Shown here: positions 3,049 through 41,190 of the stretch, in pieces
How positions within the stretch are numbered: position 1 is the first letter of the stretch
How the letters are laid out: each line of letters begins with the position of its first letter
Virus record (IMG/VR): IMGVR_UViG_3300017963_000230
Location: 1-64,000 of that record
From: a virus
Strand: one strand, 5' to 3'
Length of the DNA: 64,000 nt
The notes under the pieces: generated by a model
The model's database searches: none
Seen by the model: only the letters and a program-made list of their open reading frames with translations
Told to the model about the DNA's origin: nothing
Program-made: the position numbers and the translations under genes

Positions 3049-3309
3049 GTGAAAGAAAGAACTGATTATTATGAGTTTGTTTCTGGCGACTACGGGGATA
3101 GACAATTTAGAATTGATTATACTGCTGACTGGGTTGAGGTGAGTTGGGTAGCAGATGATGGAAACGACACACATGGGTTTAAACTGAGTATTGACAACGA
3201 AAACGGACTGGTTAGTTGCTTGGAGCACACTGGAATTGAGTGTGATATGGTGGCAATGGTGGGTTTAATTATTGACTTAGAAGTGAGAGGAGAACTGGTC
3301 GATGAGTAA
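3049..3309 (+). CDS. Hypothetical early protein (acidic)
   Basis: GTG 3049 sits 8 nt after a GGGAGG SD. The track start at 3040 is too close to the SD. Confidence 0.65.
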   Translation: MKERTDYYEFVSGDYGDRQFRIDYTADWVEVSWVADDGNDTHGFKLSIDNENGLVSCLEHTGIECDMVAMVGLIIDLEVRGELVDE

Positions 3310-3676
3310 CAATTTACCACAAAAAGGCCCGCAGCTTTTGGGCGACAGCTACAAATGTAGGGTAGCGTGTGAGTTTAAGGACTATGGGTTCATGAGACGC
3401 ATGCCCACGGGCTACAGAGTAGTGGAGCGAGAAAGGTATTTCTGCACTGGGTCAAAGGGTAACAGAGTCGGTGACATTATAGAAGTTTGGTGCAGGAATG
3501 GTCGCTGGCAAAAGAAACTGCGGTACGATCATGTAGCGGCTTTTAAGGCACGGATAGTGCAGCGGTACTACACGGAGAACGAGCACATGCTGTATGGGTG
3601 CTTTCGCAATTACCATGCACGGGTTTACATTTTAGAAGGTCGCTTTGCTGGTAAGAGTGTAAGCATACGGTACTAG
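3302..3676 (+). CDS. Hypothetical early protein
   Basis: 124-aa ORF overlapping the previous stop by 8 nt. Confidence 0.7.
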   Translation: MSNNLPQKGPQLLGDSYKCRVACEFKDYGFMRRMPTGYRVVERERYFCTGSKGNRVGDIIEVWCRNGRWQKKLRYDHVAAFKARIVQRYYTENEHMLYGCFRNYHARVYILEGRFAGKSVSIRY

Positions 3677-3746
3677 GCGGGTAGCGCAGTTTAATGTGTG
3701 TTGGGGAGGTGAGGTGCAAGCAGAGTTATCCGCTAAAATATAAACA

Positions 3747-3794
3747 AAATATCTTGTATAACCACATGAAATGTATTACATTATTAATATGAAA
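3747..3794 (+). promoter_or_regulatory. Early promoter; copy 2 of the 48-bp perfect repeat
   Basis: Identical to 2427-2474 and upstream of ATG 3833. Confidence 0.6.
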
Positions 3795-3832
3795 AGCGAA
3801 AACAAAACAGCAAAAGAGGGGAGGTGAAAAGT

Positions 3833-4099
3833 ATGCGGTTTTCAATTAGAAAACAAGACGGTACGGTACAGCGTGTGGATGTTGACAGCGTTTGGGTGCA
3901 AGCGGTACACGGTGAAATGAAATGCGGAGAGGTCGTAGACGATTACAGACTGTTGTGGGAATATGACGACGGATGCTTCAAAGCGGATGAAGGATGCTGT
4001 GCAACGCCCTGGGAATGTGACCACGACCAAGAAACACGTGGTCTTGTCTATTTTCGTAACTCAAACATGTACATCACATACGACGGGTTGCTACCATGA
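3833..4099 (+). CDS. Hypothetical early protein (Cys-rich C-terminal half)
   Basis: ATG 3833 is 8 nt after a GGAGG SD. The track start GTG 3824 overlaps the SD. Confidence 0.7.
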   Translation: MRFSIRKQDGTVQRVDVDSVWVQAVHGEMKCGEVVDDYRLLWEYDDGCFKADEGCCATPWECDHDQETRGLVYFRNSNMYITYDGLLP

Positions 4100-4296
4100 A
4101 AAAGAAACTCTTTGCGCTAATTTTAGCAGGTCTGATACTAAGTGGATGCGCTAAAAACATACACTGGTTTCGGGCTACTGACGAGTGCTGTACGGATGCG
4201 TGTATTACAGCACGGACTGGTGACTTCAACCCCGCTGACCCATGCTACAGCAGCGGGCATTTAGATGAGCACATAGCATTTGATGAGGAACTTTAA
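4096..4296 (+). CDS. Putative lipoprotein
   Basis: MKKKLFALILAGLILSGC gives a signal peptide plus an L-S-G-C lipobox. ATGA overlap with the upstream ORF. Confidence 0.7.
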   Translation: MKKKLFALILAGLILSGCAKNIHWFRATDECCTDACITARTGDFNPADPCYSSGHLDEHIAFDEEL

Positions 4297-4309
4297 AAGG
4301 AGGTGCAAA

Positions 4310-4513
4310 ATGTGTATCAAAGACTTTGAAGGGTGTAGCAGGTGTGGTAATGATACGCTTGACTACGAAGGTGAGGCTGGTGCACCTGGTGTCGGTTCAT
4401 TTTGGAGATGCCCAAAGTGTGGCGTTTCATACCACAAACGCTATGGGCGCTTCACATTAATGGAGCAGGTTGACCCACTTGACTTAGTACTGCAACCATG
4501 GCAAGTACAATAG
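4310..4513 (+). CDS. Small zinc-ribbon-like protein
   Basis: AAAGGAGGTG SD before ATG 4310. CxxC pairs CSRCG and CPKCG. Confidence 0.7.
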   Translation: MCIKDFEGCSRCGNDTLDYEGEAGAPGVGSFWRCPKCGVSYHKRYGRFTLMEQVDPLDLVLQPWQVQ

Positions 4514-4591
4514 CTCATGATTACATAGCTTATGTGGAGAGGGCATAAGCTATGTGGTAAGTGCTACTGCACTGGGAAGGAGGTGAAGAAT

Positions 4592-4972
4592 ATGAGTTTC
4601 AAAGACGAGTATAATAAAGCAGAAACTGGTGGAGATTTGGACAGGGCGATAGAACGGTGCTTGACGGTGGCAGAACGGGATAAGCTGATTGAGGCGATGG
4701 AGATTGTGGAAGAGTACACTGGGCTGGACATGAGGCAGGAGTACTTGATGATGGTGCTGAAAGCGATGAAGAAGGTGGAGAAGCGAAGCAGAAGGTGGGG
4801 CATATGGGCCATGCGGTCCTCCCTGAGCCATATGGGACCTGCTGAGTCCTGGTGCAAGCGTGATGGTGAGGTGATGATCTTTGAGGACGAGCAGGAAGCA
4901 CAAGACCAATGTGATGAATACAACGATCACGCTGGTCCCAACGTAGCATATCAGGTGCGTGAGTATGTATGA
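4592..4972 (+). CDS. Hypothetical protein
   Basis: GGAAGGAGGTG SD before ATG 4592, in frame within track ORF 4532-4972. Confidence 0.7.
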   Translation: MSFKDEYNKAETGGDLDRAIERCLTVAERDKLIEAMEIVEEYTGLDMRQEYLMMVLKAMKKVEKRSRRWGIWAMRSSLSHMGPAESWCKRDGEVMIFEDEQEAQDQCDEYNDHAGPNVAYQVREYV

Positions 4973-5010
4973 AAAAATATCTTGCAGGGCGAATGGAAAC
5001 ATGCTACATT
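4973..5010 (+). promoter_or_regulatory. Early promoter (AAAATATCTTGCA family)
   Basis: aaaaaatatcTTGCAG (4982-4987), 17 nt, TACATT (5005-5010). Confidence 0.55.
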
Positions 5011-5066
5011 ATATGTGCAAGCTAAGAAATTGGTGAGCACATGACTAAGGAAGAGGGAAATAGCTC

Positions 5067-5144
5067 ATGAAATTGGACATTTACATTGGATTGATGGTAG
5101 CAATTATAGCTATCATCTCGGTTCTTCACTTTAGCCTTTGCTAA
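5067..5144 (+). CDS. Micro-ORF, 25 aa, hydrophobic
   Basis: AGGAAGAGGG upstream. Product is MKLDIYIGLMVAIIAIISVLHFSLC. Confidence 0.25.
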   Translation: MKLDIYIGLMVAIIAIISVLHFSLC

Positions 5145-5161
5145 GGAAAGGAGCGACTGAA

Positions 5162-5341
5162 ATGGAAGAGGCCCAAGAGCAACATCAATATAAACCCCGC
5201 CGTCCAAGATCTCACGAAGACCGCTACTTAAACGATCCCCGTTGGGAAACAGCTAAGAGACTCGCTTCAGAGTGCCGCTTTGCAGAGTGCAACGTGCTGG
5301 TATTGCGGATAATGAGATCGTACGGCAAAATTTACAGTTAA
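5162..5341 (+). CDS. Hypothetical protein
   Basis: AAGGAAAGGAG SD before ATG 5162, in frame with track ORF 5138-5341. Confidence 0.6.
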   Translation: MEEAQEQHQYKPRRPRSHEDRYLNDPRWETAKRLASECRFAECNVLVLRIMRSYGKIYS

Positions 5342-5354
5342 GGAGATTAGAGTC

Positions 5355-5567
5355 ATGGGAGAAAACTTACTGGTATTAGCAAAAGAAGCGTCTGGTTATG
5401 ACACAGTGATGGGTATGCTGGAAGACTCAGTAGACGGTATCGCTGTGGGAATCTGCGACAAATGCCACGCAATCCGTGACGTGGAGCCTGACGCCAGCAA
5501 CTACGATTGCTGGGAATGTGAAGGTGGCAAGGTAAACAGTGTACTGGTACTTGGAGGACTCATTTAG
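5355..5567 (+). CDS. Hypothetical protein with a Cys/His cluster
   Basis: AAGGAG SD. Contains CDKCH...CWEC. Confidence 0.65.
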   Translation: MGENLLVLAKEASGYDTVMGMLEDSVDGIAVGICDKCHAIRDVEPDASNYDCWECEGGKVNSVLVLGGLI

Positions 5568-5581
5568 GATTCTTCAACCTC

Positions 5582-5639
5582 TTTTCTCACTGCTGTTGTA
5601 GGTAGTAGTGAGAAAAGATGCTGAGAAATCCTGAGAAAA
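5582..5639 (+). promoter_or_regulatory. Second (G/C)TGAGAAA array, including a 10-bp hairpin
   Basis: cttttctcac (5581-5590) pairs with gtgagaaaag (5608-5617). Followed by ctgagaaat 5621 and ctgagaaaa 5631. Confidence 0.55.
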
Positions 5640-5649
5640 GGAAAGCAAA

Positions 5650-5874
5650 ATGCCAAAAAAGATTAGAGTCTATACAGTTAAATGCAGAAGAGGTTGCGGT
5701 AAGGTATTAGCAACCACAAATAGGTCAATCTGGGGTGTACCACAACATATACGAGAAAAGTACCAAGGTATATGCGGTGACTGTTTGACCCCAGAAGAAC
5801 ACAGGGAGATATTTGAAGCCACCCAGAAAGCGGTAGAAAGGAAATGCCATGAGACTCACACTCTCCGACAATGA
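5650..5874 (+). CDS. Small Cys-rich (zinc-ribbon-like) protein
   Basis: CRRGCG...CGDC in a 74-aa ORF. Confidence 0.65.
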   Translation: MPKKIRVYTVKCRRGCGKVLATTNRSIWGVPQHIREKYQGICGDCLTPEEHREIFEATQKAVERKCHETHTLRQ

Positions 5875-6067
5875 AGGCGAAGTCCTAAACACTTGGGAAA
5901 TTGTAGAAGATTACCCAGTAGACTTTGATTTTGAAGACCTAGATGATGACTGGGCTGAAGATAAAATTATCATCAGTGAGGTAAACAGGGCTCCACTCTC
6001 TGCCTCCTCTTATGGTCGCCAAATACTGAGAGAAATACAGAGGATGTGGGAAGTAGGAAGGAGATAG
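5849..6067 (+). CDS. Hypothetical acidic protein
   Basis: 72-aa ORF with a 26-nt overlap on the upstream gene. Confidence 0.55.
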   Translation: MRLTLSDNEGEVLNTWEIVEDYPVDFDFEDLDDDWAEDKIIISEVNRAPLSASSYGRQILREIQRMWEVGRR

Positions 6068-6069
6068 AA

Positions 6070-6282
6070 ATGCGTATCGTAATTAAATTGGACGAAAAGA
6101 TAGAAGGTTTCAAGGGAGCAGATGGTTTCACCAGAGAAAAGCTCGTAGCCGATACTCTTTATAAAGTATTTGATAAGGCGGGAGAAAGATTTGAAACCAT
6201 CAGCTTATGGATAGAAAACAGTGAGTGTAATGAACTGGTTATGAACTTTGAAACTGGTGACATTATTACTCGTCTGCGCTGA
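6070..6282 (+). CDS. Hypothetical protein
   Basis: GGAAGGAG SD before ATG 6070, in frame with track ORF 6046-6282. Confidence 0.65.
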   Translation: MRIVIKLDEKIEGFKGADGFTREKLVADTLYKVFDKAGERFETISLWIENSECNELVMNFETGDIITRLR

Positions 6283-6328
6283 AATTGCAGTTTTAATAGC
6301 GTACAGAATCGTAAATCCCACGCTTTCA

Positions 6329-6364
6329 TTTGACGAATTCTGCATGAACTTTTGCTTTTAATGC
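6329..6364 (-). promoter_or_regulatory. Conserved ~38-nt intergenic motif, copy A (minus orientation)
   Basis: Its reverse complement gcattaaaagcaaaagttcatgcagaattcgtcaaa matches the copies at 10810, 30182 and 51195. Confidence 0.6.
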
Positions 6365-6404
6365 TATGACAAGCAGTAAATAAAAACCACGAAGGGAAAT
6401 GAAG

Positions 6405-6788
6405 ATGAAGTATTGTCCGAAATGTAAGAGCAAACTGTACCCCTACGACAGCACAGATATGGAGAAATATGGTATCTGCTCTTATTGCACAACATTTGGT
6501 AAGTTACCAAAAGAGGAAGCCATTGCAGCGGGTTGGCATTTTGGTATGGGTAACTTAGGGCTCTTAGGAGGAATAGGTACTCCTGATGACCTACCAAAGC
6601 TGATAAAAGAAAGCAATGGTGACTGGAAGAAAGTAGCTAACGAGTATGATTATTTCCTCCAGTCCCTCATGGAGTCAGACCAAATGTACGATGACTGCTT
6701 GGAAGAAGTCGACCATTGGATTAAAATAATGATTAAAGGAGAGGACGAGTACTTCTTAAAAGAATGGGAGAAAAGGAAAAATGGATGA
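6405..6788 (+). CDS. Zinc-ribbon protein
   Basis: CPKCKSK...CSYC at the N-terminus. ATG 6405 is better spaced from the GAAGGGA SD than ATG 6399. Confidence 0.7.
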   Translation: MKYCPKCKSKLYPYDSTDMEKYGICSYCTTFGKLPKEEAIAAGWHFGMGNLGLLGGIGTPDDLPKLIKESNGDWKKVANEYDYFLQSLMESDQMYDDCLEEVDHWIKIMIKGEDEYFLKEWEKRKNG

Positions 6789-6849
6789 AATAATCATATT
6801 TTGGATCATTGTTTTGGCACTAATACCTTTCATAGTGAGGAATTGAAAA

Positions 6850-7206
6850 ATGGGCACACACTCTCCAGGAAGATACAGAAGAAAAGGACGTAACGCATTT
6901 GTGCCAGGAGAAACTAATCCTGAAGATTTCTTCGACTACCCTAAAAAGTCATGGTGGTATAAACATCATTTGGAAGATTTCTTAGAAGGATGGGAAGAAG
7001 CAAAAAGGAAATATGAAAAGGAGGAAAATAAAATGATAGAATTCCCAATTTACTTTGACGATCTCAATGAGGAAACACAGAAAAGGTTTCTCGAAGTGCA
7101 AGGACTGAGTAGCCCTGAAGAAGGAAACTACGACATAACTCCAATTGCTATTGTACAGCACGACGATGAAGATATAGATGAGTGTCCAACTAAAGGTATG
7201 ATTTAA
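6850..7206 (+). CDS. Hypothetical protein
   Basis: 118-aa ORF. Confidence 0.65.
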   Translation: MGTHSPGRYRRKGRNAFVPGETNPEDFFDYPKKSWWYKHHLEDFLEGWEEAKRKYEKEENKMIEFPIYFDDLNEETQKRFLEVQGLSSPEEGNYDITPIAIVQHDDEDIDECPTKGMI

Positions 7207-7211
7207 ATTTA

Positions 7212-7249
7212 TAATTTATCTTGACAGCACCGGCCTTTTATACTATACT
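7212..7249 (+). promoter_or_regulatory. Early promoter (family member)
   Basis: taatttatcTTGACA (7221-7226), 17 nt, TATACT (7244-7249). Confidence 0.6.
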
Positions 7250-7255
7250 ATAGAT

Positions 7256-7390
7256 ATGAAAACAATACGAAGAATACAAAAAAGATGGGAAGAGGTTCCA
7301 GAGTGGATTAAGGACATAATTGGATTAATTGGTTTACTTTATGCCCTTTTCGTGTTCGCTAACATCATGGGATACGCTTCATGGAAGTAA
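7256..7390 (+). CDS. Micro-ORF, 44 aa, one transmembrane helix
   Basis: Starts 7 nt after the -10 element. Contains IIGLIGLLYALFVFANIMGY. Its stop overlaps ATG 7381. Confidence 0.4.
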   Translation: MKTIRRIQKRWEEVPEWIKDIIGLIGLLYALFVFANIMGYASWK

Positions 7391-7668
7391 AAAAGAATCT
7401 ATACAAAGGCACTTTCAACTGGTTCGGAGAAGTTCACACACTCTACACTCACTCCTCCTCCTTCGCTAAAGCCCGCACTTCCCTATTCCACAAATTAGCT
7501 GACAAAGTAGGATACCATTTCGCCTACGTATCCAATTACTACAGTATTGATAAAAATTATCAAATCAATCAGGAGGTACAAAATGCCAAAGACCCTGAAG
7601 TACACGAGAAGAGACGTGGAGTTCAACAATCTCTCTTTCCTGGCACGCCCTTTGAGAACAATAGATAA
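7381..7668 (+). CDS. Hypothetical protein
   Basis: 95-aa ORF. Its 3' end overlaps the next gene by 86 nt in another frame. Confidence 0.5.
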   Translation: MEVKKNLYKGTFNWFGEVHTLYTHSSSFAKARTSLFHKLADKVGYHFAYVSNYYSIDKNYQINQEVQNAKDPEVHEKRRGVQQSLFPGTPFENNR

Positions 7669-8119
7669 AGGCGACATGAGGTTCCATGTAAACCATTTTC
7701 TGGTAGAAGAGGATCGCTCTGCTGTTAGCACAAATGGTTCTGTACTGCACTGGGTAAAACATGTTCCTTTAGTAGCTGGTTTCTATAAACCTAAAAAGGT
7801 GCATAGAAATATGCTGGAGATAGAGTTTGTATGCAAGGTGGAAGAAGCACCACTGAACTACCCAGACTACAAGGACATACTCCACGACTGGGCAAAAGAG
7901 ACAGGTCCATATGTCAGCATTGATCTTGATTCAGACGACAAGCCTGGTTACAGCAGGGCTCTTGCAACCATTATAAGAACTATGAGCAAAGAGTGTATGA
8001 ACATAACGTGGTTGGAGATACTGACTGACGGACCTTGGGAGGGATATATAAGAGACGAGAATCCCAACTACTTTCATCAAGGAGAGCGCAAAGCACTAAT
8101 AATGCCAATGAGGTTATAG
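7583..8119 (+). CDS. Truncated beta-clamp (DnaN)-like protein
   Basis: AGGAGGT SD. AVSTNGSVLH (compare ATDGHRL), NYPDYKDIL (compare FPDYRRVLP), and C-terminus ALIMPMRL (compare VVMPMRL, recalled for E. coli DnaN). Only 178 aa. Confidence 0.5.
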   Translation: MPKTLKYTRRDVEFNNLSFLARPLRTIDKGDMRFHVNHFLVEEDRSAVSTNGSVLHWVKHVPLVAGFYKPKKVHRNMLEIEFVCKVEEAPLNYPDYKDILHDWAKETGPYVSIDLDSDDKPGYSRALATIIRTMSKECMNITWLEILTDGPWEGYIRDENPNYFHQGERKALIMPMRL

Positions 8120-8121
8120 AA

Positions 8122-8322
8122 ATGGGACACTTTGTGAATAGAGGGATGAAATGTTGGGACGAGGAAATATCAGATCCTTCCTTTGTCGCCTTTGGAGACA
8201 CTCCCTTTCCTACACGGTTCATCGACGATGTGGAAGGATACTACTATTACTCTTTTGGTTGTCGAGAAGATTGCAGTACTGGAGAAGTAATAGAGGTTTG
8301 GTACAAAAGGAGAGAGCTATGA
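8122..8322 (+). CDS. Hypothetical protein
   Basis: ATG 8122, 2 nt after the upstream stop; 66 aa. Confidence 0.6.
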   Translation: MGHFVNRGMKCWDEEISDPSFVAFGDTPFPTRFIDDVEGYYYYSFGCREDCSTGEVIEVWYKRREL

Positions 8323-8513
8323 ATCATAAATTCGCTGTATCCGCAGAGTTAGCAAAGGCAAAGAGTATGGAAGATGAGGTAATAGATGCTTGGAAGAGTA
8401 TTACAGAAGCCTCCCCAGGTGCTGTACATGACATACTCAAAGATTGGTATGCTGGTAAAATATACCTCCTTGTGCCCTCAAGGGTGTATGATAAACTTTG
8501 CGATAAAATATAA
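8319..8513 (+). CDS. Hypothetical protein
   Basis: ATGA start/stop overlap and an AAAGGAGAG SD. Confidence 0.65.
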   Translation: MNHKFAVSAELAKAKSMEDEVIDAWKSITEASPGAVHDILKDWYAGKIYLLVPSRVYDKLCDKI

Positions 8514-16945: not shown

Positions 16946-17203
16946 ATGGATGACCGTTCAAAGATTTATCTAACAATAACTACAATCTTATTAGTACTCC
17001 TGTTCTTTTTATATGTTTATAGCTACAAAATAAATCAATGGAAATGGGAATATGTTAGAAAACACATGCACGGTAAGGTGGAAGACTACAAAGTAACAGA
17101 TGATTTAACTATACGTTGGGTTCCTGTAGATCCGAGCATTTACGTTTATACTAGAGAAGGAATTATTCATATAGACCTAAGTAAAAGGGAGGTAACTAAA
17201 TGA
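16946..17203 (+). CDS. Small membrane protein
   Basis: LTITTILLVLLFFLYVY transmembrane helix. Confidence 0.6.
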   Translation: MDDRSKIYLTITTILLVLLFFLYVYSYKINQWKWEYVRKHMHGKVEDYKVTDDLTIRWVPVDPSIYVYTREGIIHIDLSKREVTK

Positions 17204-17631
17204 TAGTAGGAAAGACATTTACATTTGATGCAGCTCATCAACTACCTAAGTATCGTGGGGACTGTAATAAGCTACATGGTCATACCTATAAGTTGGAGGT
17301 AGAAGCATATGGACCTGTAGTTACGAATGAAAGAAGCACAATAGAAGGAATGGTTATTGACTTTAAAGATCTAAAAGATTTAGTAGAAGAGGTTGTTCTT
17401 AACAACCTTGATCATTCTTACCTAAATGATATATTTGAGAATCCCACAGCAGAAATCATAGCCTTTAAGATATTTTATGAGCTAGATAAATACTTTGAAG
17501 AGGAAGAGGATAGAGGTATTTCAAAAGTAAGGCTGTGGGAAACACCAACCAGTTACGTGGAGGTACGTCATGAAGATTTACAGCATTTTCTCCAGCATAC
17601 ACGGGGAGGCAAATTGCCGTGGACAGGGTAG
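17200..17631 (+). CDS. queD: 6-carboxy-5,6,7,8-tetrahydropterin synthase
   Basis: FTFDAAHQLP...CNKLHGHTYKLEV...DHSYLND...LWETPTSY is colinear with the remembered E. coli QueD. Confidence 0.85.
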   Translation: MIVGKTFTFDAAHQLPKYRGDCNKLHGHTYKLEVEAYGPVVTNERSTIEGMVIDFKDLKDLVEEVVLNNLDHSYLNDIFENPTAEIIAFKIFYELDKYFEEEEDRGISKVRLWETPTSYVEVRHEDLQHFLQHTRGGKLPWTG

Positions 17632-18226
17632 TTGGGCAACATTCGTACGAACTGCTGGGTGTAGCTTAGGTTGTAACTACTGTGATACAAAGTATGCCCA
17701 AGATCCTAGAGTAGGCAAGGAAATGGACATTTTTAGGTTAATAGAAAGAGTGGAGAAGTATAAAGGTCCCTATTTGTTGATCACAGGGGGTGAGCCACTA
17801 GAGCAAGGGGAAGAATTGCTTCAGTTTATCTCACTGGTTAGAACTAAAGGATTCCACGTTACGGTAGAAACAAATGGAGCCTACGCTCTACCCCCACGGC
17901 AGCTCTGCACCGTGGATTGCTATGTGGTAGACTATAAGCTGCCTGGTGCAGGAGTAGGTGATGTTTTTCAATGGGCTAATACTAACGTGTTTTCCCAAAA
18001 TGACGTGGTTAAATTTGTGATATCAGACGAGAGTGACTATCAAGAGGCAAAAAGAGCTTATAGGAGACTGAAACAGAGAAATTCCAAGGCAAGGTGCGCT
18101 TTCTCTCCAGTCCTGGATAGGTTAGAACCTGCTGCTCTATACTATTGGATGCTGGAAGACAATATTTGGGACGTACAGCTCAGCCTTCAGTTGCACAAAT
18201 TGGTGAAACTTCCAGAACCTAGGTAA
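17570..18226 (+). CDS. queE: 7-carboxy-7-deazaguanine synthase (radical SAM)
   Basis: SIHGEANCRGQGSWATFVRTAGCSLGCNYCDTKY gives a CX3CX2C cluster in QueE context. 62-nt overlap with queD. Confidence 0.8.
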   Translation: MKIYSIFSSIHGEANCRGQGSWATFVRTAGCSLGCNYCDTKYAQDPRVGKEMDIFRLIERVEKYKGPYLLITGGEPLEQGEELLQFISLVRTKGFHVTVETNGAYALPPRQLCTVDCYVVDYKLPGAGVGDVFQWANTNVFSQNDVVKFVISDESDYQEAKRAYRRLKQRNSKARCAFSPVLDRLEPAALYYWMLEDNIWDVQLSLQLHKLVKLPEPR

Positions 18227-18358: not shown

Positions 18359-18868
18359 ATGGCATTAAGTCCGCAATTTGTAAACGCAAAAGAGCTGAGA
18401 GAGCAGATTGGTGCTCTCAATGCAACCGGTGTTCTGGAAGAGAAGTTGAAGACCGTAGGCATTAAGAAAGAGGTCATGGTCGACAGTTTTCTCAAGGCCG
18501 TAGATAGCATTCCAGAAGGCAGTGAGGAAGAAAAGAAGCTGCCGGATTCCGTCGTGGAATTCTATAACAGCATTGTCGAAGGGAAAGATCCTAGCCCTGA
18601 AGAGATTGCCGCGATGGAAGCTGCCAAGAAGAAAGGACCTAAACGGGAAGGACCTTCTAATGAGCAGTTAGCCTACGACATGGTCAAAGCTGGCAAATCT
18701 GAAAATGAAATCGCTAAGGCATTCACTGAAAGGTATCACAAGCGGGATCAGAAAGACGCTGATTTCATCAAAAAGCGAATCGACATCTACATTCGCATTG
18801 CCAAAAAGAGGATCGAAAAGGAAGAAGGTGGGGAGGCTACACCTGCCAAAGGAGAAGCGAAGGAATAA
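18359..18868 (+). CDS. Hypothetical Lys/Glu-rich protein
   Basis: AAGGAGGT SD and a TATAAT at 18288-18293 upstream. Visibly higher G+C and different codon choice from its neighbours. Confidence 0.7.
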   Translation: MALSPQFVNAKELREQIGALNATGVLEEKLKTVGIKKEVMVDSFLKAVDSIPEGSEEEKKLPDSVVEFYNSIVEGKDPSPEEIAAMEAAKKKGPKREGPSNEQLAYDMVKAGKSENEIAKAFTERYHKRDQKDADFIKKRIDIYIRIAKKRIEKEEGGEATPAKGEAKE

Positions 18869-18871
18869 TTC

Positions 18872-19459
18872 ATGAATGAAAGACTTATCAAGGATTGTTT
18901 CAAGCTGATCATCGAACAAGGGTTGGGGTTGTCGTTAGATGACCCCAACCTTGTTGGCACCCCTGAACGTATGGCAAAAATGTATCGTCATATTTTCAGG
19001 AATGCTAAAATGGAATGTAAACCAAAACTCACCAAGTTTCCAAACGAAGAAAACATTCAAGAGCTAATAATGTTAGATAGAATACACTTCGTAAGTTGGT
19101 GTAGTCATCATTTCTTACCTTTTGAGGGATACGCTTGGATGGGATATATTCCAGATAAATTTGTTATAGGTGCCTCTAAACCCTCACGCCTTATAGAGCA
19201 TTATAGTGCTTGCCCTAATCTTCAAGAATTCCTATGTATGAACTGCATTAAAGAATTTGACAAACAAATTGAACCTAAAGGAACTATACTCGTAATGCGA
19301 GCTATTCATAGCTGTATGAGATGCAGAGGAGTAAAGCAGAGTGGAGGAGCAGGAATGATAACCTCTTCTTTATCTGGAGTTCTTAAAAAGGATGCAAAAG
19401 CAAGAGCGGAAGCAATGGACTTAATCAAACTTTCAATGATGCAGGGGATGATAGAATGA
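18872..19459 (+). CDS. folE: GTP cyclohydrolase I
   Basis: GTPERMAKMY, WCSHHFLPFEGYAWMGYIP (CEHH-type motif with Ser), HSCMRCRGV. Confidence 0.8.
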   Translation: MNERLIKDCFKLIIEQGLGLSLDDPNLVGTPERMAKMYRHIFRNAKMECKPKLTKFPNEENIQELIMLDRIHFVSWCSHHFLPFEGYAWMGYIPDKFVIGASKPSRLIEHYSACPNLQEFLCMNCIKEFDKQIEPKGTILVMRAIHSCMRCRGVKQSGGAGMITSSLSGVLKKDAKARAEAMDLIKLSMMQGMIE

Positions 19460-19681: not shown

Positions 19682-20092
19682 ATGAGAAAAATAATTTGGA
19701 TTTTAGCAATCGTCTGTGTATTTGCCCTTGTGGTAAATCCCGCCTTGAGTTGTGGGGGCGGCGACGGTGGAGGTTCAGGTGGAGACGACGGTGGAGGTTC
19801 AGGTGGAGACGACGGTGGAGGTTCAGGTGGAGACGACGGTGGAGGTTCAGGTGGAGACGACGGTGGAGGTTCAGGTGGTTCTGGCGGTTCTGGCGGTTCT
19901 GGAGGTTCTGCATCTGCAGGTGCTTCTCCTGGAGCAGCAGCAGACGGAGATGTCCCAAACGAATACGTGTATCCTGAAAAAGACTACTGTGATGCCTTAA
20001 ACGAACATGAACCTACCTGGGTTATTTGGCACATCTTCCCTTTCTTAGCTGACAAGGATGGATGTGACTGGTCACTTTATTGGAGGAAGTAA
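19682..20092 (+). CDS. Putative lipoprotein or exported protein with a (GGDDGGGS)n linker
   Basis: MRKIIWILAIVCVFALVVNPALSC gives a signal peptide plus a lipobox-like A-L-S-C. Gly/Asp repeat, then a Trp/Cys-containing C-terminal domain. Confidence 0.6.
   Translation: MRKIIWILAIVCVFALVVNPALSCGGGDGGGSGGDDGGGSGGDDGGGSGGDDGGGSGGDDGGGSGGSGGSGGSGGSASAGASPGAAADGDVPNEYVYPEKDYCDALNEHEPTWVIWHIFPFLADKDGCDWSLYWRK
19757..19909. repeat. 24-nt tandem repeat (~5 copies) followed by a 9-nt GGS repeat
   Basis: Unit ggtggagacgacggtggaggttca at 19778, 19802, 19826 and 19850, with a partial copy from 19757. Then ggtggttct/ggcggttct x4. Confidence 0.9.
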
Positions 20093-20430
20093 TGCCTAAA
20101 ACATTCGTTGTAATTAGAACTCAATTTGAAGCCTTGCATTGTTGGCCTAGCGCACCGGATGAAGTAGCTTTCCTAAGAGAGGCCCATCGTCACATGTTCC
20201 ATGTAGAGATGAAGTGGATTGTTCATCATGACGATAGAGATATAGAATTCTTCATGATGAAATGGGAAGTACAGGAATATATCAATGCAAATATGACAAT
20301 GGACCTAGGGCATAGGAGTTGCGAGATGATATGTAAACAGCTCGCAGACCACTTTAAGGCTGACTATGTGAGTGTATTTGAGGATGGTGAAAATGGAGCA
20401 GAATACTACAGAACATTCGAACCAAGGTAA
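20092..20430 (+). CDS. Small conserved-looking protein, possibly a QueD/PTPS-like T-fold paralogue
   Basis: GGAGG SD and TAATG coupling. FEALHCWP...FLREAHRHMFHVEMKW has an H-x-H plus Glu pattern. The fold assignment is a guess. Confidence 0.3.
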   Translation: MPKTFVVIRTQFEALHCWPSAPDEVAFLREAHRHMFHVEMKWIVHHDDRDIEFFMMKWEVQEYINANMTMDLGHRSCEMICKQLADHFKADYVSVFEDGENGAEYYRTFEPR

Positions 20431-20434
20431 ACCT

Positions 20435-21715
20435 ATGAAAGTAGTAGTTATTGATCCCACAAGTCCAGAAGTCAACCGAGGCAGCTTCTGTTATCTTCCC
20501 TATATTGTCTACAACAGCATAGCCTTAAAACAGAACGCATGGCTAATGGAAGACTTCACTATGGCACAAATTAACAGAATACCAAAGGCAGAGGACTATT
20601 TGGTAGCTCTTTGGTCATATCCGCAGATAGATCTCTGCCTCATGCTCAATAAGTTCCTTCCTAAACAGCCTATTTTCTTTGGGTACACACCTTTAATTAA
20701 ACACCTTAAATTAAAGCACTGGTATCCTAAAGAAGAAATGATATTGGCAGGAATGTACAATTATCCTCAATGCTATGCCTCACTAAAACATCTGCTGTTG
20801 AGTGATTGTGATATGCATCTTACAAAGTATGAGGGGCAGGTATATCCACTGTTTACCTCATATGGTTGTCCAAGAGGCTGCGCTTTCTGTCCCTCTACGG
20901 TTAACTGTGGTAGGAAGAGAATAGTAATTCCCATAGAAGATGTCAAAATGATGCTCGATCACTGTATAGAAAGAGATATCAATAACATTCATTTTACAGA
21001 TGAGGACTTCTTTTTCGATCACCAAAGAGCATTTGAAATACTGAATCATGCTGCACGGTTAGGAAGTTTTAATTTTATCGCTCTAGGTGAAGTAACCACT
21101 GTAAACCGTTTTATTGACCTTCATGGTAATGAGGTGCTCACAGACAGTGGTATGAAGTTGATTGAAATAGGCATGGAGACGGCCGACCCTGACTTAGGTA
21201 AGAAGATGGGTAAAGCCCCTGTCAATAAATGCAAGGAACTTTCTGAGAAATGCTCAGTTGATATATTCTGGTTAGCCCTGACGTTCTTCCCAGGTGAAAC
21301 GCTGAAAACTCTAAACGAAACTGGAAAGTTTTTAAGAGAGCATGGTTTTAAACCTGAAGAGCTGTATGGACGGGTCCGTACTAATGGAACTGAAGGGGGA
21401 TTAGGACAATTCTTTCAGCCCTATCATGGAACTAAAGATTACTCACAACTCAAGAAGAGAGGTAAGTTCATTTCAAGTAGACCGATGCGTTTGCTTCCCA
21501 GTTACCTGCCTAACAGTTTCCTATCTCAACTCATAAAACACAGACAAGACCACGAAGATTTAGATTATTACATCAATCTTTACAGACTTCCTGATATAGG
21601 CATACCTAATTCAGGTACAGTATGGGAAAATATTCTACGCAATCTTAAAGAAGGCATCAGTATAGCAGACTCTGCAACCTTTTATGCTATACTTGCCAGA
21701 CTGGGGATAATATGA
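20435..21715 (+). CDS. Radical SAM enzyme with an N-terminal B12-binding-like domain (class-B-like)
   Basis: N-terminal MKVVVIDPTS Rossmann-like start. FTSYGCPRGCAFCPS CX3CX2C cluster. No C-terminal SPASM-type Cys cluster seen. Confidence 0.65.
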   Translation: MKVVVIDPTSPEVNRGSFCYLPYIVYNSIALKQNAWLMEDFTMAQINRIPKAEDYLVALWSYPQIDLCLMLNKFLPKQPIFFGYTPLIKHLKLKHWYPKEEMILAGMYNYPQCYASLKHLLLSDCDMHLTKYEGQVYPLFTSYGCPRGCAFCPSTVNCGRKRIVIPIEDVKMMLDHCIERDINNIHFTDEDFFFDHQRAFEILNHAARLGSFNFIALGEVTTVNRFIDLHGNEVLTDSGMKLIEIGMETADPDLGKKMGKAPVNKCKELSEKCSVDIFWLALTFFPGETLKTLNETGKFLREHGFKPEELYGRVRTNGTEGGLGQFFQPYHGTKDYSQLKKRGKFISSRPMRLLPSYLPNSFLSQLIKHRQDHEDLDYYINLYRLPDIGIPNSGTVWENILRNLKEGISIADSATFYAILARLGII

Positions 21716-22755
21716 TTTACAACATTCCAATCGAAAGTCTTGAGGAGAGGTACAGTAAACAGTGGAACAAATGGTTCCCTGAAGAGCTTAAACGATTGAA
21801 AATCGAGAGCAAAACTGTATATCCCACTCCACTATCTAACAAAATAGAGCAGGGTAGCTTCCTTGATGTCATAACTACCAATCATTTTAAAGCTAACCAA
21901 TTATCCACTATCTGTCAACTATTCTGGATGAATAAAGTAATGCCAGGCGACACATTCCTATTTCACGACCTCTGGTTTCCTGGTATTGAAATGTTAGCCT
22001 ATATGAGAGATGCACTGAAAATTGATTTCAAAATAGCTGGCATACTACATGCTGGTAGCTATGACGAACACGACATGCTCCACAGAGTAGGAATGACGAG
22101 GTGGGCACAGTGGATTGAAAGAGGATGGTTGGAGTTTATCGATCATATATTTGTAGCTACTCAATTTCATAAAAATCTAATATTAGAACAAAGAGGATGG
22201 ACACCCAGTAAACCACATGATATAGATAATAAAATACACATCACAGGTCTGCCTATCTATCCTGAGTTTGCTAATCCTAACCCTCGTCCTAGACAGGACA
22301 TATTATTTCCACACCGACTGGACATAGAAAAGAATCCTCACATGTTTGATGAACTAGAGAAAGCATGTCGTGAGTCTGATGTTGACTTCAGCAAATGGAA
22401 CTTTTTCAAGACTAAGGATATGATAAAGAGTAAACAAGAATACTACAATATGCTGAATAATGGAAGCATAGCAGTGAGCTTTGCAGAGCAGGAAACTTGG
22501 GGTATAGCTATGCAAGAGGCTGTGATGTGTGGGTGTATTCCTCTGGTACCAAACAGACTAAGCTACCAAGAGCTGTACCCTGCAGAGTTTCGCTTTCACA
22601 ATTTTGGTCAATGCGTAGGTATGATTGTAAAGATGGTAACAGATGAACAATACTTTGAAGCCATGCAAGTGATGGCTCAAATACTGGCACAAAAGTTTAT
22701 AATGAAAGGAAAGTTTGCCATAGAGAAAATGCTAACTATATTGGAGGAATTGTGA
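21712..22755 (+). CDS. GT-B fold glycosyltransferase-like protein
   Basis: SFAEQETWGIAMQEAVMCGCIPLVPN (EX7E-like motif). 4-nt overlap with the radical SAM gene. Confidence 0.5.
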   Translation: MIYNIPIESLEERYSKQWNKWFPEELKRLKIESKTVYPTPLSNKIEQGSFLDVITTNHFKANQLSTICQLFWMNKVMPGDTFLFHDLWFPGIEMLAYMRDALKIDFKIAGILHAGSYDEHDMLHRVGMTRWAQWIERGWLEFIDHIFVATQFHKNLILEQRGWTPSKPHDIDNKIHITGLPIYPEFANPNPRPRQDILFPHRLDIEKNPHMFDELEKACRESDVDFSKWNFFKTKDMIKSKQEYYNMLNNGSIAVSFAEQETWGIAMQEAVMCGCIPLVPNRLSYQELYPAEFRFHNFGQCVGMIVKMVTDEQYFEAMQVMAQILAQKFIMKGKFAIEKMLTILEEL

Positions 22756-23018
22756 AGGTACTAAGGATAGCTGTTATACTGTTAGCAACAGTGATGATAA
22801 GTCAGGCAGGTGACTTGCCCAAAAGTACTCGCCAAATATATATTGATAACAAAAGAATTGAGAGCGAAGGAATCCACACAACGAGACCTATTAGGCCTCA
22901 TAATAAGAGGAAGAGAGTGTTTATTTATAAGTGTATTGATTCTGAAACTGGAGAAGAGGTTCCCTGTCCTGAACGTGAAAAAGAGGAAGACACAACGGAA
23001 AGAACATACATGGAATGA
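22752..23018 (+). CDS. Small secreted protein
   Basis: MKVLRIAVILLATVMISQAGD signal peptide. Basic and acidic tail. Confidence 0.55.
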   Translation: MKVLRIAVILLATVMISQAGDLPKSTRQIYIDNKRIESEGIHTTRPIRPHNKRKRVFIYKCIDSETGEEVPCPEREKEEDTTERTYME

Positions 23019-24202
23019 AACTCTATAATAATCATTTCAGCATTGAAGGCACTTACGATATACTCAATCTAAGAGAAGAGCTGGGAAATGCTATAAGCAA
23101 ACCTCCTGCTACTCCTAGAATAGGAATGAGACCTCACACCGCAATTAAGCTACTTCAGGTACGGGATAGAACTGTAAGGGATTTATGGGAAAGGATAAAG
23201 TATATGGTGAAATATGACGATGTAAAGATATTTATGGACTCTGGGGCTCCTAGCCTTTATAACTCCCTTGTGAGAAACAAAGAAGGAGGTGCTCACACTT
23301 ACATGGGAAGTTACCTAAAGGACAGGAAGCATGATGACTTCAGCTTCCTTGAGATGAACGAATACAAAATCTATCGTCGCAAGTATACCATGTTTATTAA
23401 GGAGTACCTTCCTAACCTAGAAGTCTATGCCGTACTTGATGTGATTAATAATGCAGAAGCTACCTGGGAGAATCAGCAGTATATGGAGAGCAAAGGCCTA
23501 AAGCCTATACCTGTTTGGCATTTTGGATGCGAGATCAAATGGCTTGAGATGTATCTAGCTAAAGGCTATGAGTACATAGCAATAGGTGGATTGGTTCCTA
23601 ACCCTACTTCAGTTATTATACCTCCGTTGGATGACATTTGGGATTACCTGTTGACCTACGACAATGGCATCCCGCGGGTTAAAGTACATGGCTTCGCGGT
23701 GACAGCACCTGAACTTGTTAGTCGCTATCCCTGGTACAGTGTGGATAGTGCCAGCTGGGTAAAATATGGTAAGTATGGTATAGTATTGACTCCAAGAACA
23801 AAAGGAGGTAAACGTGTCTACAACGTCTCGCCCCACAGCGTTGCAGTTTCAGATAGAAGTCCGTTTAAAGAGATGCAGGGAAAACATATCTCAAATTACT
23901 CACCTGCTGAACGAAATTTCATCCTTAATTACTACCACGAAAAAGGTTTCCGACTTGGAAGTTGTAAGTATAAACTTGTCGGCAATGGCTACGACCTCCA
24001 GGATAATGAGAGATTCGTTAGTGGAAGAAAAGGAGATAAAGAACGGGAAGTTGAAATCGAAATTGAAAAGGGCCTTGCTACTGACTACAGAGTAAGAGAT
24101 GAATTGAACATACTTTACTATCTAGATTTAGAAAAGAGTCAACCTGACTGGCCTTGGGCTTTCAAGCGCCACAAAATGCCGAAAGGATTCAACTTATTTT
24201 GA
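23015..24202 (+). CDS. dpdA: DpdA-like DNA (guanine) transglycosylase, TGT superfamily
   Basis: IFMDSGAPSLYN, YIAIGGLVP, KVHGFAVTAP and YSVDSASW mirror the TGT-family motif order. Sits in a FolE/QueD/QueE cluster. Confidence 0.65.
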   Translation: MKLYNNHFSIEGTYDILNLREELGNAISKPPATPRIGMRPHTAIKLLQVRDRTVRDLWERIKYMVKYDDVKIFMDSGAPSLYNSLVRNKEGGAHTYMGSYLKDRKHDDFSFLEMNEYKIYRRKYTMFIKEYLPNLEVYAVLDVINNAEATWENQQYMESKGLKPIPVWHFGCEIKWLEMYLAKGYEYIAIGGLVPNPTSVIIPPLDDIWDYLLTYDNGIPRVKVHGFAVTAPELVSRYPWYSVDSASWVKYGKYGIVLTPRTKGGKRVYNVSPHSVAVSDRSPFKEMQGKHISNYSPAERNFILNYYHEKGFRLGSCKYKLVGNGYDLQDNERFVSGRKGDKEREVEIEIEKGLATDYRVRDELNILYYLDLEKSQPDWPWAFKRHKMPKGFNLF

Positions 24203-40837: not shown

Positions 40838-41190
40838 TCACCTCCTTTCTGTTTAGGTTGGATATGAAACGCCTTGAGTAGTACTTCTTGATTAGCCTTG
40901 ATAGTGTGTATGGTATCAAATTTCTCCTCCATTCTCGTAGCTATCCATCCAAACATCGTAATCGTTATACCTACTAATATTATCAAGACCCATCGTGGTG
41001 CCCTAGATTTAATATCTTCTCTCATTTCCTTCAAATCCTCCTTAGTTGCCGTTCTCTCGAATAATTGTTCTATATGTGCTTCATTTTTATGAATAGCAGA
41101 ACATTTGATATCATGAAATGCACAGACGGATCTATCTGATTCCCTCCTTATGTGTTTCCTTCTATCTTCTATTCCATTCCAATCACTCAT
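40834..41190 (-). CDS. Membrane protein with a C-proximal transmembrane helix (holin/XhlA-like layout, unverified)
   Basis: Helical N-terminal region, then WVLIILVGITITMFGWIA. 4-nt overlap with the giant gene. Confidence 0.55.
   Translation of the reverse strand: MSDWNGIEDRRKHIRRESDRSVCAFHDIKCSAIHKNEAHIEQLFERTATKEDLKEMREDIKSRAPRWVLIILVGITITMFGWIATRMEEKFDTIHTIKANQEVLLKAFHIQPKQKGGE

Follow-up and report, generated by a model that had tools for sequence, protein, structure and literature searches.

Phage DNA contains eight known derivatives of 7-deazaguanine and, according to a 2023 survey in Nucleic Acids Research (PMC10516641), none of them carries a sugar; the words glycosyltransferase and glycosylation do not occur in its text. 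In Cellulophaga phage phiST, which encodes FolE, QueD, QueE, DpdL and DpdA3, the base 2'-deoxy-7-deazaguanine (dDG) has been measured (PMC10516641). Outside phages, the enzyme HuiG of the huimycin pathway in Kutzneria albida glycosylates a preQ0-derived 7-deazapurine at its 2-amino group with N-acetylglucosamine (GlcNAc; PMC7439116). We analysed a stretch of viral DNA of 64,000 nucleotides (nt), hereafter the window (IMG/VR record IMGVR_UViG_3300017963_000230, positions 1 to 64,000), in which a gene encoding a radical S-adenosylmethionine (SAM) enzyme (20435-21715, + strand) and a gene encoding a glycosyltransferase (GT; 21712-22755, + strand) lie between deazapurine synthesis genes and the gene for DpdA. 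The pair very probably belongs to a deazaguanine DNA-modification pathway. On the basis of sequence, structural models and analogy, we assign a probability of about 0.5 to the reading that its product would be a deazaguanine that bears a sugar and is elaborated with the participation of the radical SAM enzyme. We know of no glycosylated 7-deazaguanine in DNA, and the searchable literature, whose coverage is incomplete, held no report of such a base or of a GT in these clusters; within that coverage, the combination is as unreported as an earlier note on this DNA had supposed. A 2026 preprint mining 7-deazapurine clusters set DpdA loci aside when prioritising secondary-metabolite candidates, and does not mention phages.

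The GT (347 amino acids, aa) is assigned through its fold and its EX7E motif, with weak matches to GT1/GT4 families. Its Pfam scores are sub-threshold (17.1 bits for PF00534, cut-off 26.4; 15.3 bits for PF13439, cut-off 28.5), many of its homologues carry precomputed PF00534 matches, and a PDB search with its sequence returned no match, only the fold search being informative. The AlphaFold2 model (predicted local distance difference test, pLDDT, 92.4) presents a GT-B fold, with two Rossmann-like domains and a cleft between them. Foldseek aligned this model with MshA, BshA and BA1558 at template modelling (TM) scores of 0.66-0.72, MshA and BshA being retaining GT4 enzymes. Further fold matches were the pterin glucosyltransferase BGluT, SenB and GtfA, and the T4 alpha- and beta-glucosyltransferases (AGT and BGT, of the GT63/GT72 type) were absent from the best 50 matches in the PDB and likewise from the best 50 in the viral database BFVD. 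Across 33 homologues the residues E261-x7-E269, R202, K207 and H113 are invariant; R202 and K207 lie within the motif FPHRLDxEK and, by analogy, would bind the donor diphosphate. Further invariant residues, E8, R13, Y14, W18, D52, D86 and W88, line a pocket in the N-domain. The invariant residues and the GT4 fold together argue for an active, putatively retaining-type enzyme using a nucleoside diphosphate sugar donor, and the model and the invariant E261 and E269 bear out the earlier description of this open reading frame (ORF) as GT-B-like with an EX7E-type motif.

The GT family is larger than the radical SAM family, with 757 matches against at least 228 in the same type of search. Among 83 GT loci, DpdL was present in 80; a class-B-like radical SAM enzyme related to that of the window accompanied the GT in 39 loci, another radical SAM enzyme in 28, both in none and neither in 16, a group that includes the cultured phages ACP17, PA5oct and BUDD. 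DpdL and DpdA have their constant partner in the GT and not in the radical SAM enzyme. DpdL, GT and DpdA form the core module; a radical SAM enzyme is often added to it, but can be exchanged or dispensed with. Cultured carriers of the GT comprise Acidovorax phage ACP17, PA5oct-like Pseudomonas jumbo phages, Xanthomonas phages BUDD and X1, Burkholderia phage BCSR5 and Sinorhizobium phage Phosso. The gene lies beside those for DpdL and deazaguanine-pathway enzymes in ACP17, PA5oct and BUDD, and for X1, BCSR5 and Phosso the observation is one of presence only, both GT and DpdL being encoded. The GT family was found with DpdA1-like enzymes and with enzymes of phrog_10773 (DpdA3-type).

The Synechococcus phage BUCT-ZZ01 (ON615601.1, 61886-72227) presents the order QueE, xanthine-guanine phosphoribosyltransferase, QueD, FolE, GT (447 aa), DpdA3, DpdL and GT (388 aa), the 388-aa protein being a distant member of the GT family (HHalign 99.85%); two GTs flanking DpdA3 and DpdL hint at a disaccharide or at two sugar sites. 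DpdL was found without a GT in phiST and in Chryseobacterium phage MA9V-3, where it is accompanied by a small ATPase and by another short protein nearby (DpdA3 in phiST). Judging from their gene content, these GT-less systems would represent a separate, plain dDG architecture. The ATPase, an AAA_18 kinase-like protein, comes right after DpdL in both (5314-5811 of the phiST locus, 5345-5815 of the MA9V-3 locus), and the MA9V-3 DpdL is apparently fused to an N-terminal extension of ~180 aa.

This linkage bears directly on the idea that the GT, perhaps together with the radical SAM enzyme, is unrelated to the base and O-glycosylates a phage protein, for example a Ser/Thr-rich repeat protein, or decorates a polymer of the host surface, and that it lies in the cluster only incidentally. 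The window does encode a mucin-like protein, and Foldseek matches of the GT include GtfA, Gtf3 and GtfC, which glycosylate serine-rich repeat proteins. However, the GT adjoins DpdL or DpdA in 80 of 83 loci, which span widely dissimilar phages (jumbo phages and a cyanophage among them), it always resides inside the replication module with varying order within the cluster, and the radical SAM family was found nowhere else. A Ser/Thr-rich protein as the GT target was accordingly rejected as the main reading on gene linkage, and an incidental position of the GT is highly improbable. The mucin-like protein itself is encoded by a 1651-aa ORF (41187-46142, - strand) with 74% Ser+Thr, in which ~3.8 kb of degenerate 'STSTSTY' tandem repeats are enclosed by ordinary N- and C-terminal domains; it accounts for a spike in GC skew and AT skew at 42-46 kb, and by its sequence looks like a mucin-type virion or fibre protein that might be a target of O-glycosylation.

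The radical SAM enzyme comprises 426 aa from its ATG, an alternative longer start (GTG or ATG) being possible at 20372 or 20393, and it matches PF04055 with 43.3 bits (cut-off 29.5). Its GCPRGCAFC sequence constitutes a CX3CX2C cluster, whose three cysteines, C145, C149 and C152, do not vary across 33 aligned homologues; the alignment contains no other conserved cysteine cluster, and highlights the motifs SDCDMH, HFTDEDF and TNGTxGGLGQF as invariant and peculiar to this family. The AlphaFold2 model (pLDDT 93.6) places a beta-alpha Rossmann-like domain at residues 3-90, followed by the radical SAM core, so that both the cysteine cluster and the Rossmann-like start remarked on previously are substantiated. 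Full-length homologues of both the radical SAM enzyme and the GT number in the hundreds, at 33-88% identity, which indicates that these ORFs do not arise by chance.

The closest solved relative of the radical SAM enzyme is AprD4, which was its best Foldseek match in the PDB (6fd2; 1e-13, TM 0.58 over ~414 columns), its sole significant PDB sequence match (E 6e-11) and its best NCBIfam match (NF033070). The latter scored 49.9 bits against an equivalog cut-off of 500, over residues 139-311 only, placing the enzyme outside the AprD4 family in spite of the resemblance. Foldseek, whose matches were all to enzymes with radical SAM cores, grouped the whole protein with AprD4 and next ranked the cobalamin enzymes MgmA, TsrM, CysS, TokK and OxsB, and no Pfam B12-binding domain was detected in the radical SAM enzyme at E<=0.1. 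The modelled architecture is class-B-like, and use of cobalamin is only putative. AprD4 has a B12-like domain, yet is not known to bind cobalamin and is a sugar-diol dehydratase, not a methylase.

Searching IMG/VR with the window radical SAM protein alone returned no match, and an alignment-based scan identified 46 loci with homologues at 33-58% identity. All 46 show a core of FolE, DpdL, radical SAM enzyme, GT and DpdA wherever the contig reaches, usually with DnaB, QueD and QueE upstream and a clamp-like protein and PolA downstream; the order of GT and radical SAM enzyme is reversed in a few, and in a single locus, L048, DpdL is missing and a QueC-like gene is present instead. A survey of 185,579 bacterial and archaeal species, represented by one genome each, yielded a single match, on a 27-kb contig of a metagenome-assembled genome with the same layout. 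In a profile search against 1.84 billion representative proteins, 70 radical SAM clusters were recovered at E<=1e-30, mostly composed of full-length members, and matches beyond this value span the radical SAM core only.

Three very distant radical SAM homologues again co-occur with FolE, GT and DpdA, there in the company of QueC. At 22-24% identity, two full-length members that are among the most distant belong to clusters ordered FolE, radical SAM enzyme, distant GT, ParB-like protein, DpdA and QueC, the GT being identified by HHalign (96.7% probability) and retaining EX7E. The very distant pairs (22-25% identity) occupy positions 3283-5623, 6001-8438 and 3700-6137 of their respective loci (L132, L133 and L134), which encode QueC, ParB_N (DpdB-like) and DpdA, and no DpdL. 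Together with L048, these pairs with QueC and without DpdL indicate that the pair is not limited to the DpdL/dDG branch. The pair was seen without deazaguanine genes in none of the 47 radical SAM loci nor in the three very distant homologues, which upholds the link to deazaguanine originally proposed. One homologue, on the IMG/VR contig of a further locus (L052), is interrupted by an intein (PF14890): this protein (P0090) has 722 aa, and its match to the radical SAM family is split, with the C-terminal part of the match at residues 421-721.

The second radical SAM family, found in the 28 GT loci mentioned above, consists of proteins of ~300 aa with PF04055 and a SPASM/twitch region, unrelated to the window enzyme (for instance L055 8043-8921, L072 13154-14170 and L051 8433-9353). 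Among solved structures it comes closest to BtrN (3e-15), with a weaker match to BlsE. The two types of radical SAM partner are interleaved on a rough neighbour-joining tree of the GT, built without bootstrap, which tentatively indicates repeated partner swapping. Neither type had a tblastn match in 50,697 INPHARED phage records, implying that no cultured phage there carries the full pair. AprD4, BtrN and BlsE all act on sugars or cyclitols, and by analogy both radical SAM types would point in the same direction. Given these sugar-type relatives, the pattern is most simply read as transfer of a sugar by the GT and tailoring of that sugar by the radical SAM enzyme; that the latter acts specifically on the sugar is an analogy-based proposal that we advance only tentatively.

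The same evidence bears on the proposal that we are dealing with a genuine class B methyltransferase with cobalamin as cofactor, in which case the radical SAM enzyme would C-methylate the deazapurine ring (at C7 or C8, as TsrM does at indole C2) or the sugar, to yield a methylated product with or without glycosylation. The Rossmann plus radical SAM fold aligns with cobalamin-binding TsrM, TokK, CysS, OxsB and MgmA, weak NCBIfam matches include the B12-dependent P-methyltransferases PhpK and Sden_1168, and DpdL would free a C7-H, an electron-rich pyrrole carbon. Against this, no Pfam B12-binding domain was found, the best match in both sequence and fold is AprD4, which is not known to bind cobalamin and is no methylase, and a BtrN/BlsE-type twitch/SPASM enzyme takes the place of the window type in 28 sister loci. 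To our knowledge, the BtrN/BlsE-type twitch/SPASM group includes no methylases. Furthermore, no cobalamin-related gene was detected among the window ORFs scanned with Pfam, which comprised 38 proteins of 66-508 aa up to ~40 kb, the minus-strand half (41-64 kb) lying outside the scan. We hence regard methyl transfer as decidedly unlikely. The earlier note had argued from class B membership to methylation, and this argument is weakened by AprD4 as nearest solved relative and by the BtrN/BlsE-like substitute in sister phages; of its suggestion of a methylated and/or glycosylated deazaguanine, glycosylation is strengthened by the comparative evidence and methylation loses ground.

The base pathway onto which the pair would be grafted is encoded on the + strand around it, in the arrangement originally described, with QueD, QueE and FolE upstream and DpdA downstream. 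These comprise the 6-carboxy-tetrahydropterin synthase QueD (17200-17631; PF01242, E 1e-32; phrog_2389), the 7-carboxy-7-deazaguanine synthase QueE, itself a radical SAM enzyme (17570-18226; PF04055 and PF13353; QueE-like phrog_2076, E 2e-32), the GTP cyclohydrolase I FolE (18872-19459; PF01227, E 3e-42) and a DNA guanine transglycosylase of DpdA1-like type, DpdA (23015-24202; phrog_887, E 8e-37). The QueD and QueE ORFs as listed share 62 nt (17570-17631), so the true QueE start probably lies further downstream. The joint presence of FolE, QueD, QueE and DpdA marks this, by sequence, as a Dpd-type cluster.

The ORF immediately upstream of the radical SAM gene, left unnamed by the earlier note, encodes DpdL, a QueD paralogue with a T-fold and a proposed CDG (7-carboxy-7-deazaguanine) decarboxylase (20080/20092-20430, 112-116 aa; phrog_17812, E 7.5e-25), for which gene callers choose the ATG start that gives 112 aa. 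It is 37% identical to phiST DpdL and carries the motif L-REA-HRH-M-F, corresponding to the LxxxHRHxF signature of DpdL, for which decarboxylation of CDG has been proposed (Cui, Hutinet et al. NAR 2023, PMC10516641). The PP-loop motif of QueC, SGGxDS, was found in none of the six frames of the window, which covers ~64 kb of a genome of ~85-88 kb; of the related loci, L048 is the only one to have it in a QueC-like context, the matches in L003 and L047 not being QueC-like. With DpdL and no QueC motif, the base pathway is, as far as its sequences indicate, of the dDG type among phage 7-deazaguanine systems. The window DpdA shares 34-35% identity with its counterparts in Escherichia phages, among them JenP1, slur01 and KurtStettler, a group that we take to be DpdA1. 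BLASTP detected no similarity between it and the large neighbouring proteins of ACP17, PA5oct and BUDD, including the 540-aa neighbour in PA5oct, and in ACP17 and BUDD the adjacent DpdA is of another subfamily, phrog_10773 (DpdA3 type).

The observed folds, catalytic motifs and conserved linkage allow us to propose a sequence of steps, in which we infer all chemistry after CDG, together with the attachment atom, the donor sugar and the step order. FolE, QueD and QueE, homologues of established enzymes, would produce CDG, which DpdL, in the role proposed in the literature and with no QueC motif in the window, would decarboxylate to 7-deazaguanine. DpdA would then exchange guanine in DNA for the deazaguanine base, and the GT4-type enzyme would glycosylate the deazaguanine, taking the sugar from a nucleotide sugar of the host. 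This transfer would most likely take place after insertion, because the same GT family goes with at least two unrelated DpdA subfamilies. The association of the GT with different DpdA subfamilies and, in distant clusters, with QueC in place of DpdL suggests an acceptor feature common to 7-deazaguanines, and such a feature weakly favours glycosylation after insertion. A 5'-deoxyadenosyl radical generated by the radical SAM enzyme would take a hydrogen from a carbinol carbon of the sugar, be it still on its nucleotide donor or already transferred, and the sugar would subsequently be dehydrated or oxidised in the fashion of AprD4 or BtrN. Virion DNA would thereby be expected to contain a keto- or deoxy-hexosyl-7-deazaguanine, with the alpha configuration predicted for a retaining GT4 enzyme. 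Restriction enzymes, and nucleases whose action relies on recognition of a known modification, would be blocked by it.

Several observations weigh against this proposal. The base 7-deazaguanine presents no obvious oxygen acceptor, and attachment would have to proceed through N2, as in HuiG, through a C-glycoside at C7 or C8, which would be without precedent for this enzyme class, or through another substituent. The decarboxylase activity of DpdL has only been proposed (PMC10516641). The AprD4 match falls so far under its NCBIfam cut-off that AprD4 chemistry is not simply transferable, no AprD3-like reductase partner was found near the radical SAM gene, and the 16 GT loci without a second radical SAM enzyme imply that the radical SAM step is optional. 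Finally, the median isoelectric points of the GT (5.8) and of the radical SAM enzyme (5.5) are mildly acidic and that of DpdA (8.9) is basic, and the nearest GT4 structures all have small-molecule acceptors. Both of these features fit action before insertion at least as well, isoelectric points being a weak guide to a DNA or small-molecule acceptor.

The last points are what the principal competing explanation draws upon, namely that the GT has as its acceptor the free deazaguanine base, or a precursor of pterin or deazapurine type, and that the radical SAM enzyme works on a small molecule, with DpdA inserting the decorated base or with a soluble, non-DNA metabolite as the outcome. In addition to the contrast in isoelectric point, small acceptors are shared by all structural neighbours of the GT, the pterin glucosyltransferase BGluT included, as well as by HuiG, MshA and BshA; HuiG provides a free-base precedent, and the upstream enzymes all act on free small molecules. 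Enzymes of the tRNA-guanine transglycosylase (TGT) family, however, bury the 2-amino group of the base, so that an N2-glycoside could not be inserted. Moreover, since the GT goes with DpdA1-like and DpdA3-type enzymes, each DpdA type would have to accept a bulky base, and the occurrence of DpdA in nearly all loci, with translational coupling to the GT in the window, argues that the product ends in DNA. On balance, action of the pair before insertion appears rather unlikely, and glycosylation of the inserted deazaguanine is retained as the preferred reading.

Taken one step further, the preferred reading would define a new class of DNA hypermodification in a large, mostly uncultured group of phages, in which a glycosylated 7-deazaguanine is formed via an unprecedented bond (a C-glycoside at C7 or C8, or a minor-groove N2-glycoside) and its sugar is diversified by interchangeable AprD4-like and BtrN-like radical SAM enzymes. 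We consider this extension possible, at less than even odds; its cultured relatives would be ACP17, the PA5oct-like jumbo phages, BUDD, X1, BCSR5 and BUCT-ZZ01. If correct, the sugar-bearing deazaguanine would add a new chemical class to the known DNA bases, a purine parallel to the glucosyl-hydroxymethylcytosine of T-even phages, and the tailoring step would be the first radical SAM sugar chemistry on, or for, DNA. It would also give two new radical SAM families with findable substrates. The apparent repeated swap of two unrelated sugar-type radical SAM enzymes beside one GT suggests diversification of the sugar under host-defence pressure, comparable to sugar variation in T-even phages.

Two published observations could be accounted for in the same way. 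When dpdL and dpdA of phiST and of ACP17 were expressed in E. coli no dDG was obtained, and the authors suggested that further enzymes may be needed (PMC10516641); a GT acting alongside DpdL and DpdA could explain the failed reconstitution with the ACP17 proteins. Likewise, PA5oct DNA is refractory to a number of restriction enzymes, the pattern of resistance suggesting a modified G (PMC12191111), and the proposed base could be the suspected modification in PA5oct-like therapeutic jumbo phages. The GT part of the proposal can be tested in cultured phages carrying the GT, DpdL and DpdA core.

The genes around the pair are tightly packed. As claimed from the outset, the radical SAM and GT ORFs are real and overlap by 4 nt (ATGA), and the DpdL stop lies 4 nt upstream of the radical SAM ATG. 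Downstream, the GT overlaps an 88-aa ORF (22752-23018, + strand) with a hydrophobic, signal-like N-terminus and no family match through GTGA (22752-22755), and this ORF in turn overlaps DpdA through ATGA (23015-23018). The 88-aa ORF has a good ribosome-binding site, GGAGGA, 7 nt upstream of its GTG start; it had no tblastn match in related loci, where the GT and DpdA matches are mostly adjacent, and its membership of the module is doubtful. Between QueE and FolE lies a conserved Lys/Glu-rich ORF of 169 aa without family match (18359-18868, + strand). About half of the radical SAM loci have a homologue of this protein (31-70% identity) within or beside the QueD/QueE/FolE block, in most cases between QueE and FolE, and the protein may belong to the module without having been recognised as such. 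A Gly-rich repeat ORF of 136 aa between FolE and DpdL (19682-20092, + strand), also without family match, begins with a signal-peptide-like segment and contains five GGGSGGDD units, encoded by a perfect 24-nt tandem repeat (4.9 copies, 19762-19878) that keeps three forward frames and one reverse frame open.

The cluster is embedded in a replication module with genes for a helicase, primase, DnaB, clamp-like protein, PolA, clamp loader, gp32, RecA, FEN and an SbcCD-like protein, and the same genes are present on metagenome contigs of 85-88 kb. No nucleotide-sugar gene was detected among the scanned window ORFs, which reach to ~40 kb, and neither was any thymidylate-synthase-like or hydroxymethylase gene; modification of another base, considered as a further candidate, was rejected on the latter result.

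Set against described systems, the locus most resembles that of phiST, with which it shares FolE, QueD, QueE, a DpdL bearing LxxxHRHxF, DpdA and adjoining replication genes. phiST differs in having neither a GT nor a second radical SAM enzyme, and in placing an AAA_18 ATPase between DpdL and a short DpdA3, whereas the window encodes a DpdA1-like DpdA and the added radical SAM and GT pair, which makes plain dDG an unlikely end product. For the GT, the comparison with HuiG, made by description and not by sequence, brings out a GT-B enzyme beside FolE, QueD and QueE genes and a base of 7-deazaguanine type; PF13439, to which the window GT has a weak match, has been reported for GTs of the huimycin family. 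HuiG nonetheless belongs to actinomycete secondary metabolism, without DpdA, and its free base is not put into nucleic acid. The T4 alpha- and beta-glucosyltransferases, both GT-B enzymes, offer the complementary likeness, since they place a sugar onto an already modified nucleic-acid base, 5-hydroxymethylcytosine. In vertebrate tRNA, queuosine is similarly glycosylated by QTMAN/GTDC1 (mannosyl) and QTGAL (galactosyl), GTDC1 being a GT-B enzyme. The acceptor in the T4 and queuosine systems is a hydroxyl, on hydroxymethylcytosine and on the cyclopentenediol of queuosine, respectively, which 7-deazaguanine lacks.

Among radical SAM enzymes, AprD4, a 1,2-diol dehydratase of apramycin biosynthesis, shares with the window enzyme the architecture of a predicted N-terminal, B12-like Rossmann domain followed by a core with a single CX3CX2C cluster, but identity is 14-15% over the fold alignment and the window family has invariant motifs of its own. 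BtrN, the 2-deoxy-scyllo-inosamine (DOIA) dehydrogenase of butirosin biosynthesis, and BlsE, a cytosylglucuronate decarboxylase, are like AprD4 in starting by abstraction of hydrogen from a sugar or cyclitol carbon; they are unrelated to the window enzyme in sequence and domains, and their relevance comes through the replacement pattern and not through homology. What is known at this locus is hence a base pathway of the dDG type, and what is new is the added GT with its interchangeable radical SAM partners, which predict a new DNA base.

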